DNA from: Candidatus Aenigmatarchaeota archaeon
GTDB taxonomy: Archaea; Aenigmatarchaeota; Aenigmatarchaeia; CG10238-14; SCSR01
Assembly (NCBI GenBank): GCA_030615205.1
Contig: JAUWZS010000001.1
Coordinates: forward strand, 209,492 to 273,491
Length of the DNA: 64,000 nucleotides
Direction: 5' to 3'
Under the pieces are notes generated by a model. That model ran no database searches and was not told the DNA's origin. It worked only from the letters and a program-made list of their open reading frames with translations. Position numbers and translations under genes: made by a program. Positions 40,209 through 45,772 of the stretch are shown here, piece after piece; within the stretch, counting starts at the first letter, position 1; each line of letters starts with the position of its first letter.

Positions 40209-40556
40209 ATGAAATTAATACCATATCTTTTGGTGGGGAACCACCCAAAAACAGCTAAATTGAAGCAAAGAATAGTACAAATAGTCAAGATATTGAAGGA
40301 AAACCAAGGCAAAATCGAGGCAGAAGAGCTTGAAAAGAAGTTGGGCATCTCTCGAACAACGAATCCCAGCCTGTTTTACAAGCCACTGGCGTCCATGCGT
40401 AAGTGGGACTTGGTCCAATCGCATCGAAAAGTGGAAATTAATGCAGAAGGAAAGAAGAAATTCCGGACAACTTACGAACTAACACCAGGGCTTTTCTACC
40501 ACTATATAGAACGTACGCTGATTGAGCTGGCCAAAAAAGAGATCGAAATGGTGTAA
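40209..40556 (+). CDS. winged-helix DNA-binding protein
   Basis: IVQIVKILKENQGKIEAEELEKKLGISRTT...WDLVQSH. Confidence 0.45.
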   Translation: MKLIPYLLVGNHPKTAKLKQRIVQIVKILKENQGKIEAEELEKKLGISRTTNPSLFYKPLASMRKWDLVQSHRKVEINAEGKKKFRTTYELTPGLFYHYIERTLIELAKKEIEMV

Positions 40557-40983
40557 AACGTTAAAAACCTTTGATTTTCTTGAATTTTTGTTAATTTTTA
40601 GTATTTTATAGCAGAAATGCGCCACTGCTAAGCAGAGACTGAGCATTTGTGAGAGTTTGTGTTTAATTTTGTTGCGTGATAAATATTATATACTAAAGAA
40701 TATATATTGATTAGTTTTGCCTATTATCGAATAGATAGACTCTATTGTTGCTGTTTTATAGCCGATATAGCCCTCTTTTTAGCGTTTTTATGGCCTTTCT
40801 TTGTCAATTGGGTAGGCTAAAATAAGCAGATAAATATTTAAAATTAAGTAGGTTTGTATATAGAAATAGACTATATAATATATTAAATAAAATATACTAC
40901 ATAAAATAATGTGAGATAAATATAATATATAAGATATATTATATAAAAAGATAGTGTGTGATATATAGTTTGTTATAAATAAA

Positions 40984-41155
40984 AGTGAGAATTTTGGTTG
41001 ATCTGGTAGGAGTGAGATTTATGGTGTAGCAACATCGAGGTATGGCGCATTTAGTGGATTTTGGTGATCAGAGTGTTAAAGTGAAAGTGAGAGTTCGTGG
41101 CACAGTTTTGGCTAAACTAGCAAGTGAGTTTACAGGACTTTGAGTAAATGTGAGG
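40984..41155 (+). repeat. dispersed AGTGAGA(N)TT direct repeats (iteron-like)
   Basis: AGTGAGA at 40984, 41011 and 41086. AGTGAGT at 41123 and TGTGAGG at 41149. Related AGTGGAT and AGTGTTA lie between them. The array sits downstream of a very AT-rich tract. Confidence 0.6.
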
Positions 41156-41201
41156 TATTCCGAACGCAAATAAATTTAAGCTTCAAAATTTAATAAATTT
41201 T

Positions 41202-41918
41202 ATGGGTTTAAAGCAAAAATTAAAGCGGATATTTCGAATAGGCGCCAAAGATGAAGCGCTTCAAAGCGATTTAAAGCGCTCGAAAGCGCTCGAAAGCGCT
41301 GCAGATTTAGAAGATAAATACCCTTATCAAACTCCAACAGAACCTACCGAACTCTCACGGCCTCTCGAAATTCAAAAGGATTCATTGCAATTGGGAATCG
41401 CAGCTGGCTACACAGGTAAATTTATACGGGAAATTGAGCGTTCTTTGGGCAGAATCGAGACACATATGGTCTCTAAGGATTGGTTTTCATCTAAATTCGA
41501 GGATCGGTCACCCGAATTAATAGAACTTTTGAGCAACATTAAAACACTCATCCAAGAGCATGATAATACTGTCTCAAAGCGATTTAAAGCGCTCGAAAGC
41601 GCTTCAAATCGCATACAATCTATTGCAACCAAAGCCCCAAAACCTATTAGACAGAAACTGATGAAAGAAGTAGAAACTATTGAAGCAGCTCTGCCTCTTA
41701 CTTCAAAGATGAGAAAACTTGTTTCTGTTGTAAAAGATTCTGGAAAATTAAGTTATGATGAACTGTGTACAAAACTCAATGTCAGCCGATCATCACTTCG
41801 CGGTCTTCTTGCTAATACTATGAAACGAACAAATGAAATCGAACGATTCTCTGTTGACGGCAAAGGATGGGTGCGCTATAAACATCCAAAAACCACACAA
41901 ATTCCTGATTTTCCATAA
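41202..41918 (+). CDS. hypothetical protein with C-terminal wHTH; contains embedded 10-bp-phased AAGCGCT repeats
   Basis: C-terminal LSYDELCTKLNVSRSSLRGLLANTMKR...GKGWVRYK. The N-terminal and middle parts are helical. Confidence 0.5.
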   Translation: MGLKQKLKRIFRIGAKDEALQSDLKRSKALESAADLEDKYPYQTPTEPTELSRPLEIQKDSLQLGIAAGYTGKFIREIERSLGRIETHMVSKDWFSSKFEDRSPELIELLSNIKTLIQEHDNTVSKRFKALESASNRIQSIATKAPKPIRQKLMKEVETIEAALPLTSKMRKLVSVVKDSGKLSYDELCTKLNVSRSSLRGLLANTMKRTNEIERFSVDGKGWVRYKHPKTTQIPDFP

Positions 41919-41966
41919 AATATTTTCTATAAAACAGTAAAAAGTCACTCAAAACACTAGAAATTC

Positions 41967-42269
41967 CTAAATTTTTGGCACTTTCCTTTCACTCTTATTT
42001 TCAATCTTTTCTTTAACTGCTAAAAATCTGAAAACCCCGTTCAAATCTGTACCAGGTTTTAATCTGATCATGTGCACATTGAATGGTTCCATTGTCTGGG
42101 TTTCCACAAACATTGCTAAATGTTTATCAATAAGGCGGGAAACGGTTTTATGGTGTAGATTGCACCGTCTAGATATCTCTCTTATCCAAAGCCAGCCACC
42201 TTCTGCCTGCTTTAGGCATCTAACGATTTTTATTACGTTTTCAGCTGCATCTTTTCGCATTTTTACCAC
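41967..42269 (-). CDS. winged-helix DNA-binding protein
   Basis: GGWLWIREISRRCNLHHKTVSRLIDKHL. Confidence 0.45.
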   Translation of the reverse strand: MVKMRKDAAENVIKIVRCLKQAEGGWLWIREISRRCNLHHKTVSRLIDKHLAMFVETQTMEPFNVHMIRLKPGTDLNGVFRFLAVKEKIENKSERKVPKI

Positions 42270-42439
42270 ACTTGAGAATCCATAGCTCCAATTGGCGCAC
42301 TTAACATACTAAATATATTTTAAACCCGTCAGAACAAATAATTATTGGTTAACTATCACTAGTATAATCAACTTCGCAAACAAAAACATGAAAACAAATT
42401 TAAGTCACAACATTCTATTTATTCATTACGTAAATTCAC

Positions 42440-42558
42440 AGCGGAGTGGAGCAGTCAGCGACGTATTCGCCTGCAATGGAGTGCTCGTCGGGCTCATATA
42501 AAAGCTAAAAGCTTTTTGAGAGACCCGAAGGTCCTAGGTTCAAATCCTAGCTCCGCTA
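42440..42558 (+). tRNA. initiator tRNA-Met(CAU) with two introns (D-loop and canonical 37/38)
   Basis: Hand fold: A1-U72 acceptor AGCGGAG/CUCCGCU. The D stem GAGC/GCUC encloses a ~30-nt loop containing the hairpin GCGA-CGUAU-UCGC. Anticodon stem UCGGG/CCCGA with three G-C pairs, loop CUCAUA-[~24 nt]-A. T arm CUAGG-UUCAAAU-CCUAG. Confidence 0.7.
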
Positions 42559-42573
42559 TTTTTTCTTTTTTTT
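42559..42573 (+). terminator. oligo-T tract after tRNA-iMet
   Basis: ttttttcttttttt lies immediately 3' of the discriminator base. Archaeal terminators are oligo-T. Confidence 0.4.
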
Positions 42574-42579
42574 AAATTT

Positions 42580-42993
42580 TTGGTGAAGACCGTGCCGAGA
42601 ATCAAAGGTTTTGAAAAGCTTGTTGAACTTGTCAAACATCTACGGAGCGAAAGCGGCTGTCCATGGGACAGGGAACAAACGATTGAGAGTTTAAAAGAAG
42701 ATGTTCTCGACGAGGCAAATGAATTACGAGAAGCTATAGAAAAAGGCGATTATGAAAACATTAAAGAAGAAATCGGCGATTTGATTTGGGGACTAGTTCT
42801 TATGACACAGGTTGCAGAAGAAGACGGGAAATTCGATCTTGATGATGTTTTTAAAGACGTCAACGAAAAAATGGTCCGAAGGCATACCTATGTTTTTGGG
42901 GATGTCAAAGCAAAAACAGCTGAAGATGCAGCAAAGGCATTCAATGAGGCAAAAGCAAATGAAAAGAAAAAAAGTGGGCCCACCCAGAATTGA
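42580..42993 (+). CDS. mazG: MazG-type nucleoside triphosphate pyrophosphohydrolase
   Basis: LRSESGCPWDREQT...EANELREAIE...EEIGDLIW (EExxE/D motifs). TTG start. The last 19 nt overlap tRNA-Val on the opposite strand. Confidence 0.85.
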   Translation: MVKTVPRIKGFEKLVELVKHLRSESGCPWDREQTIESLKEDVLDEANELREAIEKGDYENIKEEIGDLIWGLVLMTQVAEEDGKFDLDDVFKDVNEKMVRRHTYVFGDVKAKTAEDAAKAFNEAKANEKKKSGPTQN

Positions 42994-43046
42994 ACTGGAG
43001 TCTCCACCTTGTAAGGGTGACATCCTAACCACTAGACTATAGGCCC
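42975..43046 (-). tRNA. tRNA-Val(UAC), no intron
   Basis: Hand fold: acceptor GGGCCUA/UGGGCCC, anticodon arm UCACC-CUUACAA-GGUGG, T arm UCCAG-UUCAAUU-CUGGG. Confidence 0.8.
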
Positions 43047-43081: not shown

Positions 43082-45772
43082 TTAAAATAAAAAGCTTACT
43101 AATACAACTGCAGCAATGAGCATTATTTGAATTATTCCGAAAAAGCCAAAATCCGGCAGGCTTATAAGACCTCCTTTAACAATGAGTGTCTGATCAGATT
43201 CTATCTTGTTAGGACTTTGTGACGTATCTGACGATATTGAAACATCTGCAGTAGCAGTTTGTTCAGATGATAATACATTAACACCGACATAAATCTGTTG
43301 AACGTCGTTTGTGCTTAGCGACGCTGTGGTCTGGGCACCATTTTCGATAATTAATAGTCCTGGATCGGTTGCAACAACACTAATTCCATATGTATCACTC
43401 AAGGTACCATTGTTTTTAACAATAATGACAAGGTCCTGTCCTTCACCAACTACTAAACTCATACTACTCGGCATAAAGACTTCAAATGAAATCGGATAAA
43501 ATATTCTAGTGACTTCAACATATGTACCTGGGTCAATAGGATCAAAGGCTTTGCAATATATTGTATTTGGGTTTGTTCTCAGCTCACCACCCGGATCTGG
43601 TGTCATATCGTATTCTGCTGGTGGTAATAATATTGTACATCCTCCGCCACCAGGCTCACTAGAATATGGGAAAGGATTGCAGTTCCAGAGACCATTTAAT
43701 TCACACTCTACATTCACTGTAGCGCCTCCATACTCAGTGACCCAGTTTATATTAATTTGATCTAGAGTAGTCGAGAAGTGAAGGGATCTAATTTCTAGGG
43801 GTTCAGGTGGACTTTCCTCACTTCCCCAACTTCCGTGGGTTGGTTCTGGAGAGGCGTATTTTCTAAGTGTCATGGCATCCCAGTAACTAACATCTCCATC
43901 ATAGAGCAAATTAATCTGAAAACTTCCAAAGCTTGATAGATAAGGAGAAGTGCGGCTGCCAGCACCATTGCCATCACAAGTCGCAGTATAATCACTTCCA
44001 GTAATCTTAACTTCAAAATCATGCCATCCAGAAGCTCTATCGACACCTAATGAATATCCAGTTCCAACTTCCCCAGATTGCCATTCGACTATTGAATAAA
44101 CAGTTCCATCCTGAAATTGTTTATTATATTCTGTATCAACACCTAAACTGAGAGTGGGAGCGGAAGCGGTGCAATCCGCACCACCACTAATAAATAACCT
44201 GAATCTTACACCAGAATCTGATGGATTATTTTCTTTGAAATGGATACTAAGAATCCCAGTATTTCCTGTACTTCCCATATCATGGCAGAGACTGTCACCA
44301 GCTTCAATCTCTACAGAGCTAGTCCCATGCCATTGTTCAGATGCAACAAGGGTTGGACTTCCTCCAGTGGTCCATTGACTAAGGTCAGTTTCGAAGTCAT
44401 CAAAAAAATCAAATGTAGCACTGCCATCACTAGTCGTTGTAGCACCACTATTTCCATAGTACATGTAAATTGTTCGATCCGCCGTACTCAAATCATCTCG
44501 AACTTCAACCCAGAATGTTGCTGTGCTCGCGTCGTACGACTCCAACCAATAATCCAATTCTGTGGCTCCATCGTTATCTGTAAATCGTAGATCATCCGGC
44601 CAGTTCTGAGCATGACCATTCAAATAAACATCCTCACCGCTGTCCGTGCCACTTCCGCTATGTACAACGATTTTGACTTGATAGTTAGTATCAGCACCAG
44701 CAGCACTGTTGATTACGTGACTTTTGCGGTAGTTAAAACCAGAAAGCCATGAAGGTTCAGGTGCAATTTCTTCACTTTCCCAACTTCCATGGGTCGGTTC
44801 TGGAGACGTGTATTTTCTCAAAGTGATATTATCGAATTCTCCCTGAGTTCTTCTGAATGATAAAGATATATCTAAACCACCAGGTTGGGTTCCAATCGAT
44901 GCCTGACATGTTGAGTTCGAGTCAAATAGTGAACCATCTATATACCATGCACATCCTGGTATTGTGCTACCATTTACCACAAGTTTCCACTGATACCATT
45001 GATAGTACCACGGTTGAATGGTATCTTCAAGCGCTTGAATCACATTGTCATACTTCACACTAAATCCTCTTGTATAACTACCTCCAGACCTGTAGTATCG
45101 CATATAAAAATCATCAGTATCATAGAATTCAATCCTTCCACTTCTGTAAAAAGTCCCAAAAATACCTATATCTGGTTTTAATGCAGCTTCAAGTACATAT
45201 CCTTGACCAATAAAATTTTCAGTCAACTTTGTGTCATAATATAAATAAGTAAAAAAATCACCAGCCGTAGGACCTTTCACAACTTTAGTCCCATCCATAA
45301 CAACTGTCCACGATTCTGAAGATGACCAGCGACTCGGTGCTTGACCCACAGTTTCGTCTTCAAAATCCTCGTAAAAATCGTATGTTTCTGTTGCATTGCT
45401 CGTTGAAGAAACAGAAGGATTTCCATAGTACATGTAAATTGTTTTTGTGCTTGAAGCTAGTATGTTTGGGACATTTACCCATACTGTCGCACTTGTACTT
45501 GGGGTATAACTTTCAACCCAATACGGAACCAAAGTTGTTTCATCACTATCTGTAAATCTAAGATCGCTAAAATCAGAGTTCATATCGCTATCATAAATGA
45601 CAATAATTTTAACTGGATAGTTTGTTAAATCGCTTCCTGAGTTCTCTGTAATATCAACTGGTCTTCTGAAATTCCAATCTATATCAAACCACGTCCCTTG
45701 GGAATAGACTAAAGGAGAAAGAAATAAAAATACAGTAAAAAAAGTGAAGAAGAATATTATTTTCTTAATCAT
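43082..45772 (-). CDS. large secreted surface protein with two DUF2341-like modules, LamG/jelly-roll-like modules and a C-terminal TM anchor
   Basis: N-terminal signal/TM MIKKIIFFFTFFTVFLFLSPLVYS. Two modules begin W(N/F)YR(R/K) and end IYMYYGN...FDFF(E/D)DFE. Linkers RKY(T/A)SPEPTHGSW(E/G)SEE. C-terminal LPDFGFFGIIQIMLIAAVVLVSFLF. Confidence 0.75.
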   Translation of the reverse strand: MIKKIIFFFTFFTVFLFLSPLVYSQGTWFDIDWNFRRPVDITENSGSDLTNYPVKIIVIYDSDMNSDFSDLRFTDSDETTLVPYWVESYTPSTSATVWVNVPNILASSTKTIYMYYGNPSVSSTSNATETYDFYEDFEDETVGQAPSRWSSSESWTVVMDGTKVVKGPTAGDFFTYLYYDTKLTENFIGQGYVLEAALKPDIGIFGTFYRSGRIEFYDTDDFYMRYYRSGGSYTRGFSVKYDNVIQALEDTIQPWYYQWYQWKLVVNGSTIPGCAWYIDGSLFDSNSTCQASIGTQPGGLDISLSFRRTQGEFDNITLRKYTSPEPTHGSWESEEIAPEPSWLSGFNYRKSHVINSAAGADTNYQVKIVVHSGSGTDSGEDVYLNGHAQNWPDDLRFTDNDGATELDYWLESYDASTATFWVEVRDDLSTADRTIYMYYGNSGATTTSDGSATFDFFDDFETDLSQWTTGGSPTLVASEQWHGTSSVEIEAGDSLCHDMGSTGNTGILSIHFKENNPSDSGVRFRLFISGGADCTASAPTLSLGVDTEYNKQFQDGTVYSIVEWQSGEVGTGYSLGVDRASGWHDFEVKITGSDYTATCDGNGAGSRTSPYLSSFGSFQINLLYDGDVSYWDAMTLRKYASPEPTHGSWGSEESPPEPLEIRSLHFSTTLDQININWVTEYGGATVNVECELNGLWNCNPFPYSSEPGGGGCTILLPPAEYDMTPDPGGELRTNPNTIYCKAFDPIDPGTYVEVTRIFYPISFEVFMPSSMSLVVGEGQDLVIIVKNNGTLSDTYGISVVATDPGLLIIENGAQTTASLSTNDVQQIYVGVNVLSSEQTATADVSISSDTSQSPNKIESDQTLIVKGGLISLPDFGFFGIIQIMLIAAVVLVSFLF

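Follow-up and report, generated by a model that had tools for sequence, protein, structure and literature searches.

Why would a gene carry one short DNA word in two separate arrays, at about one unit per helical turn, and translate it in different reading frames? The question is raised by a 238-aa open reading frame in a 64-kb stretch of DNA (hereafter the window), which belongs to an Aenigmatarchaeota genome assembly of 1.17 Mb. The initial annotation of the window described two runs of a 10-nt unit within this gene and a 30-mer shared exactly by both. It held that this identity was kept at the nucleotide level and not by repeats of the protein, and it offered phased binding sites, an internal origin or iteron set, or an RNA element as possible reasons, with a check for restriction or methyltransferase motifs matching AGCGCT. 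Full-text literature searches returned no description of this protein family or of this array layout. Here we compare the gene with its homologs, using 18 genome loci and 78 metagenome loci, in terms of the repeats, the encoded protein and the neighbouring genes, and weigh which molecule is likely to read the arrays.

Results

Two arrays within one gene

Both runs lie where they had been reported, at 41251-41300 and at 41574-41613 (Table 1), and the five units of the first, ATGAAGCGCT TCAAAGCGAT TTAAAGCGCT CGAAAGCGCT CGAAAGCGCT in order, agree with the initial annotation in position and sequence. The same is true of the 30-mer TCAAAGCGATTTAAAGCGCTCGAAAGCGCT, which is repeated exactly at 41261-41290 and 41574-41603, and of the two frames in which it is read: position 41261 is a third codon position and the copy gives QSDLKRSKAL, while position 41574 is a first codon position and the copy gives SKRFKALESA. 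The first unit of the 5' array is a 12-bp perfect palindrome (TGAAGCGCTTCA). The first AGCGCT stands at nucleotide 54 of the coding sequence, as it does in most AGCGCT-type homologs, and the array is read in three frames to give EALQSDLKRSKALESA, within a disordered linker of the protein. The internal array forms a 34-nt imperfect palindrome overall, and the conserved helix motif KRF(K/E)A(L/I)E is encoded over it.

The two arrays can also be aligned with an offset of one unit, 41271-41300 against 41574-41603, in which case 26 of 30 positions are identical, the frame is the same, and the readings are KRSKALESA in the 5' array and KRFKALESA in the internal one. The 5' array therefore corresponds to the internal array with a single 10-nt unit added. 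Two frames are used ahead of this added unit and one frame behind it, a pattern that is clearest in close relatives.

Occurrence of the arrays by chance is ruled out. Five of the six copies of AAAGCGCT in the window lie inside the 238-aa gene, the tandem pattern AAGCGCTNNRAAGCGCT occurs in this gene only across the whole 1.17-Mb assembly, and six of the genome's eight pairs of A[GT]CG[CA]T cores 3-6 nt apart fall within it. The hexamer AGCGCT was found 12 times in the window against 7.9 expected, with half of these copies (6/12) in the 238-aa gene. Genome-wide it occurs 162 times in 1.17 Mb (0.138 per kb), against about 136 in a hand estimate from base composition. Outside the gene AGCGCT, which is the Eco47III/AfeI site, is neither depleted nor enriched across the genome, a result that speaks against a methyltransferase or restriction motif.

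Table 1 Features of the window around the 238-aa gene (positions are those of the window)
Feature	Position	Strand	Basis or remark
115-aa winged-helix gene	40209-40556	+	HTH_11, weak Csa3-like HTH
Upstream non-coding gap	40557-41201	+	Seven GTGAG(A) motifs, TATA-like AAATAAATTTAA
238-aa protein gene	41202-41918	+	ORF list; both repeat arrays inside
5' array, five 10-nt units NNRAAGCG(C/A)T with the AGCGCT palindrome	41251-41300	+	TRF, period 10
Internal (second) array, four units, the last degenerate (TCAAATCGCA)	41574-41613	+	Repeat search
Segment of the 238-aa gene	41703-41879	+	Recognition helix starts at RSSLRGLL
Convergent 100-aa winged-helix gene	41967-42269	-	Conserved partner of the 238-aa gene

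A winged-helix protein with a disordered linker

No Pfam or NCBIfam family reaches its curated cut-off with the 238-aa protein. The Pfam families HTH_Mga and HTH_11 give sub-threshold matches only, over aa 166-216, and the best PDB profile match has E = 0.04. In the AlphaFold model, an N-terminal amphipathic helix (aa 3-10) and a basic cluster lead into a disordered linker at aa 14-60 (pLDDT <50), and this is exactly the stretch that the 5' array encodes. Long helices are modelled over aa 57-163, and the C-terminal winged helix-turn-helix over aa 168-226, with helices at 168-180, 185-192 and 196-209 and strands at 213-218 and 221-226 (pLDDT 87-94 over aa 111-230). A fold search returned MarR/ArsR-type winged helices only, the best being MarR, HlyU, PagR and CzrA, with matches at E ~0.01 only and over 60-90 residues. 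As modelled, the protein is a winged helix of MarR/ArsR type at the level of the fold and not of the family.

The N-terminus is itself conserved among the homologs, as M-G-[ILF]-[ILF]-D-x-[LI]-K-x-[IL]-F-[RG]-K-K (41202-41249 in the window), and the hydrophobic moment of its helix is 0.64, against 0.37 for shuffles. The combination of an amphipathic helix with a basic cluster resembles membrane-targeting or partner-binding peptides.

Distribution and genomic neighbourhood

A sequence search with the 238-aa protein returned 117 homologs, all from metagenome assemblies and many of them on contigs of 0.1-0.9 Mb; the named ones belong to Aenigmarchaeota, apart from one Micrarchaeota record. Among 151 sampled genomes of the phylum, the gene was found, mostly once, in 28 of the 32 genomes of the same family and also in several other families of the same order, and was absent from the other classes. 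As a single-copy, vertically distributed, chromosomal gene, it is not the cargo of a mobile element.

The most constant neighbour is the 100-aa winged-helix gene, present at 49 of 66 homolog loci. It lies on the opposite strand in 44 of these 49, and is convergent and downstream in most, with a median gap of 186 nt. Along with this small winged-helix gene, methionine aminopeptidase is a conserved neighbour. The 115-aa gene stands upstream of the homolog in eight loci, which again indicates a conserved chromosomal neighbourhood and not element cargo. The context of an integrated plasmid or virus was rejected, as the 238-aa, 100-aa and 115-aa genes co-occur chromosomally in divergent genomes. 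The initial suggestion of an internal origin or iteron set did not hold either: the gene is vertically inherited and single-copy on the chromosome, the sole match in the genome to Cdc6_C, the orc1/cdc6 marker domain, is 105 kb off (C29:355421), and the cumulative GC-skew minimum is weak and about 20 kb off.

Some other features of the neighbourhood were recorded. Upstream of the homolog, 7-8 related loci (L078, L004, L037, L042 and relatives) have a tyrosine-recombinase-like gene (~300 aa) and a Cas2-like ORF (70 aa). In the window, a tRNA spanning 119 nt at 42440-42558 (+) was matched by Rfam and missed by ARAGORN, and therefore probably contains introns. A tRNA-Val lies at 42974-43046 (-).

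The gap ahead of the 238-aa gene is probably its promoter and control region. The TATA-like AAATAAATTTAA stands about 30 nt ahead of the ATG, and across the homolog loci TATA-like words peak at -30 to -21. GTGAG(A) occurs seven times on the plus strand of the gap (at 40648, 40910, 40984, 41011, 41086, 41123 and 41149) and not once on the minus strand, against a background of 0.54 per kb per strand. A GTGAG was found within 120 nt upstream of the start in all 54 of 54 homolog loci, and it looks like a conserved control element of the gene family rather than the origin of a mobile element.

The arrays are conserved as nucleotides

Across the order-level family the arrays are kept as nucleotides. 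The coding sequence of the homologs (46 kb) contains 233 copies of AGCGCT, or 5.0 per kb, and the flanks (258 kb) contain 35, or 0.14 per kb. Codon choice was compared between 33 distinct AGCGCT-type 5' regions and a background of neighbouring genes. In the former, Ser-Ala is written AGC-GCT in 42 of 42 instances (background 8%), Ala-Leu is written GCG-CTN in 83 of 90 (background 13%) and Lys-Arg is written AAG-CGC in 15 of 21 (background 3.5%); binomial p-values would overstate independence here, since the sequences are related, but the effect sizes are unaffected. In the same regions the hexamer is used in all three frames (42/24/83), and the N-terminal peptide words of the homologs, EALQS, ASKRF, SDLKRS and RFKALESA, are three readings of one DNA unit. 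Among roughly 200 core-to-core spacings in AGCGCT-type arrays, 109 are of 10 nt and 55 of 11 nt. This spacing, together with the palindromic cores, fits the phased binding sites that had been suggested.

The initial annotation had proposed to look for a peak of synonymous-site conservation at the two runs, and such a peak was found. Four close relatives, at 80-89% nucleotide identity, were set in a codon alignment with the window's gene. Among degenerate positions where the amino acid is invariant, the same codon is used at 21 of 25 within the arrays and at 58 of 124 elsewhere (Fisher p = 0.0008). The mean pairwise synonymous difference among these relatives is 0.07 in the arrays and 0.28 outside them, and all five genes have equally many units. 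Homologs that retain the protein retain the nucleotide repeats too. The claim that the identity is held in the DNA is thus upheld by codon choice, by synonymous conservation and by the arrays that follow the stop codon (see below). A repeat of the protein was rejected on the grounds of codon choice, the use of all three frames and the untranslated distal arrays.

Each lineage has its own word, and uses it twice

Three repeat classes were distinguished among the homologs, with AGCGCT, ATCGAT or TCAATCA as the word. The ATCGAT class is a single clade, in which (G)AATCGAT recurs at 8-10-nt steps and is translated as peptides such as NRFESM and NRYESI. In the third class TCAATCA(C) reads as INQS. 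Its arrays are mostly direct repeats with a spacing of 4-23 nt, not one helical turn, and its genes also have inverted pairs such as GATTGATTGATTTAAATCAATCAATC.

In each gene the word recurs at a second site, which is either internal or lies at the stop codon or beyond it. The internal helix KRF(K/E)ALES holds the second site in the window's clade and in one other, and internal arrays in this same place were found in L001, L005, L009, L015, L022-24 and L026. In most other clades the second site follows directly after the wing of the winged helix and is sometimes translated as a C-terminal tail. Distal arrays that lie beyond the stop codon and are untranslated were found in L002, L003, L006, L009, L011, L025-28 and L030, as well as in L046, L052, L058, L069, L072 and further loci. 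The protein sequence cannot account for a second array that is untranslated and nevertheless repeats the private word of the first.

This recurrence was quantified by taking the top three 7-mers of each 5' region and seeking them in the remainder of the gene and a further 120 nt. Of 58 genes, 48 contained their own 7-mers again; the density was 6.6 per kb there, compared with 0.28 per kb in the flank upstream and 0.09 per kb farther downstream. The 7-mers were also denser in the gene's own distal zone than in the distal zones of other genes (6.59 against 2.81 per kb), and none of 2000 permutations gave a value as high. Genome G013, the only sampled genome with two paralogs (L113 on contig C18 and L114 on contig C7), repeats this pattern within a single genome: the two genes carry different private words, TCAAGCGCTTGA and CGAGTGANTCGAT, each near the start and at the stop codon. 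The arrays sit where any peptide is tolerated (the linker, the C-terminal tail, the untranslated flank) or where the helix fits the word.

Candidate readers of the arrays

Since each lineage has its own repeat word, the arrays are most likely the binding sites of the protein itself. Palindromic cores such as AGCGCT and ATCGAT, and the inverted pairs of TCAATCA-type genes, suggest cooperative binding of dimers to duplex DNA, as does the spacing of one helical turn, and the winged helix of the gene's own product is the foremost candidate. The start of the recognition helix varies with the class of word, being R/V/I/L/T-S in the AGCGCT class, V/T-D in the ATCGAT clade and E/Q-S/D in the TCAATCA class, and LRGLL is preceded by E or Q in 25 of 25 TCAATCA-type genes and in none of 41 AGCGCT-type genes. 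As independent evidence this association was rejected, because a tree in which the TCAATCA-type genes form one clade passes the AU test (p = 0.29), with the deep branches of the family tree not resolved, and the association may reflect a single event; on well-supported branches it comes down to one independent pair. In the 100-aa protein the recognition helix LHHKTVSRL is almost invariant, and is the same in AGCGCT-type and most TCAATCA-type loci. Its constancy across classes makes the 100-aa protein unlikely to read the arrays.

A search for a wider regulon placed all 23 copies of AAGCGCTT in the genome within coding sequence and none in promoters. One of these 23 sites has an extended version, the only such in the genome: a perfect 14-bp palindrome, TTCAAGCGCTTGAA, at 45026-45039, in a gene for an 896-aa surface protein 3.1 kb downstream of the arrays. 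This may be chance or a third, distant site.

Discussion

The reading that we favour, and to which we give about an even chance on the sequence evidence above, is that the arrays are cognate operator arrays on duplex DNA, overprinted on the gene and bound by its own dimeric product. TATA-like words peak so close to the start codon (21-30 nt ahead of it) that the transcript probably has little or no leader, which would place the 5' array from about +50. The product would then bind cooperatively along the 5' array, some 50 nt after the near-leaderless start of transcription, and would bind the distal site as well. Such binding would block or loop the gene that encodes the protein, a form of negative autoregulation, and would perhaps also insulate the 238-aa gene from its convergent neighbour. 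Plain autoregulation leaves the conserved, amphipathic and basic N-terminal helix unaccounted for, and a regulator with its own gene as the sole array target needs another role. The mostly direct, irregularly spaced repeats of the TCAATCA class also count against this reading, as does the lack of single sites in promoters.

An alternative is that the words act in the mRNA, where the protein or another factor would bind them at the 5' and 3' ends of the transcript and control how it is translated or how stable it is; in genes of the AGCGCT type, palindromic units next to each other could in addition pair into hairpins. All arrays do lie in the sense orientation of the gene, including the non-palindromic TCAATCA arrays after the stop codon, distal sites often overlap the stop codon, and the internal site of the window folds as RNA at -19.6 kcal/mol (z = -5.35). 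Orientation is weak evidence, however, since TGATTGA gives stops in all frames and the sense orientation of the 5' array is thus forced by coding. The fold is not general either: the 5' array of the window folds no better than shuffles (z = -0.84), the TCAATCA-type arrays of relatives are without structure (-0.3 kcal/mol) and no Rfam family matches the arrays, a scan of 40400-42600 having returned only one tRNA and two chance-level snoRNA matches. The RNA element put forward in the initial annotation, taken as a structured RNA, consequently falls short as a general explanation. Palindromic cores at 10/11-nt spacing are typical of dimers on duplex DNA, and the domain that the 238-aa protein is predicted to carry is a MarR/ArsR-like winged helix; with these points on the other side, we consider action in the mRNA unlikely. 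The protein might otherwise bind its own gene as a landmark on the chromosome, its N-terminal helix and linker tethering the locus to the membrane, to a partner in segregation or division, or to a partner ATPase. This would amount to a minimal centromere-like or tethering system of Aenigmatarchaeota, with autoregulation as a by-product, and the binding word would co-evolve with the protein, one stretch of DNA being both site and reader. In keeping with this, paired units are almost unique to the 238-aa gene within the genome, the gene is single-copy and near-universal in its family, and a flexible linker follows the conserved amphipathic helix. Flexible N-terminal peptides that contact a partner are likewise known from centromere-binding proteins (ParB, ParR and ParG among them), and a parS site sits within spo0J in Bacillus subtilis, two parallels that count for a landmark. 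Against it, the conserved neighbours include no ParA/SegA-type ATPase, the 238-aa protein is unrelated to ParB, ParR and SegB, and membrane binding by the N-terminal helix is purely hypothetical, so that we hold a landmark role to be distinctly unlikely. A ParB-parS or ParR-parC partition system as such was rejected, there being repeats at the gene but no neighbouring NTPase and no ParB, ParR or ribbon-helix-helix signature.

Another protein could be the reader, either the convergent 100-aa winged-helix protein or a chromatin protein. The frequency of the small winged-helix gene at the homolog loci, and the position of the distal arrays between the two genes, would suit this. The near-identity of LHHKTVSRL in loci with different words stands against it, as do the differences between classes at the start of the 238-aa protein's recognition helix and the different words of the two paralogs of the 238-aa gene in one genome, and we regard a foreign reader as improbable. 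It is more doubtful still that the arrays are functionless, that is, slippage-prone repeats in a tolerant linker homogenised by gene conversion, or that they form a phase-variable switch. The units of 10, 11, 4, 8 and 16 nt are not multiples of three, the segment that the arrays encode is disordered and differs in length between lineages, and (CAAT)n-like runs resemble the contingency repeats of Haemophilus influenzae. Yet the frame between the N-terminal helix and the core is intact in all parsed homologs with a complete 5' end. Internal stops were flagged in four genome hits, of which L102 has its stops beyond the true stop and L100, L101 and L103 fall outside the parsed set (anchor pattern unmatched); in L076 the start codon had been mis-called. 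Perfect runs are short, with at most about four tetranucleotide or two to three decamer units, and the five close genes share their number of units and have fewer synonymous changes inside the arrays than outside. The arrays also persist between proteins with only 35-50% identity, and they recur at a second site, in many cases outside the translated sequence. A phase-variable contingency locus was rejected on the short perfect runs, the constant unit number and the in-frame state of the parsed homologs.

If the arrays are the protein's own sites, the gene is an unusually clear natural case of an overlapping code, with up to about 11 units written in all three frames. The arrays would then be as old as the protein family, with a word that shifts jointly in both arrays of a gene. 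The family would offer a ready set of protein-site pairs (AGCGCT, ATCGAT, TCAATCA and further words) for the study of how winged-helix specificity evolves, and a first functional handle on a conserved, unannotated core gene of genetically intractable DPANN archaea. The low-complexity N-termini of the homologs (ALQS/KRF/SA, INQS, NRFES) are by-products of selection on the DNA and not protein motifs.

Comparison with known systems

In Escherichia coli, lac O2 in lacZ and gal OI in galE are auxiliary operators that lie within coding sequence and act with looping. They resemble the proposed operators in that the sites are in a translated region, with a second site some hundred base pairs away (cooperation between the two being a proposal in our case), and in that the sequence is constrained at both the protein and the DNA level. 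Unlike the arrays described here, they are single operators, and the repressor is encoded elsewhere or upstream. The family described here, in contrast, has arrays of up to about 11 units inside the gene of the presumed regulator itself, written in three frames and with a word that varies by lineage.

Tandem sites of similar size are known from MetJ (8-bp met-boxes), from ParR-parC of plasmid R1 (11-bp units) and from omega of pSM19035 (7-bp heptads). As in the arrays, these are head-to-tail units of 7-11 bp, at about one helical turn in parC. Dimers of these proteins polymerise along the DNA and autoregulate, much as is proposed for the 238-aa protein. MetJ, ParR and omega are ribbon-helix-helix proteins with sites in promoters, whereas the protein described here combines a winged helix with long helices, and its candidate sites lie on its own coding sequence and stop codon. 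The parS site in spo0J/parB of Bacillus subtilis resembles the proposed arrangement in being a site inside the gene of the very DNA-binding protein that recognises it, and in marking a unique chromosomal region; it differs in that the 238-aa protein has no ParB homology and its gene no adjacent ParA, and in that arrays of short units stand in place of the 16-bp parS.

For the architecture of the protein, a parallel is found in RdfS, a winged-helix protein that carries an additional helix at its N-terminus, forms oligomers on DNA and binds to the region of its own promoter (PMC11963761). RdfS shares with the 238-aa protein the winged helix and the extra N-terminal helix, and it coats extended DNA (PMC11963761). 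It is, however, a protein of a mobile element without a clear site consensus (PMC11963761), whereas the repeats described here are sharply defined and belong to a core gene of the chromosome.
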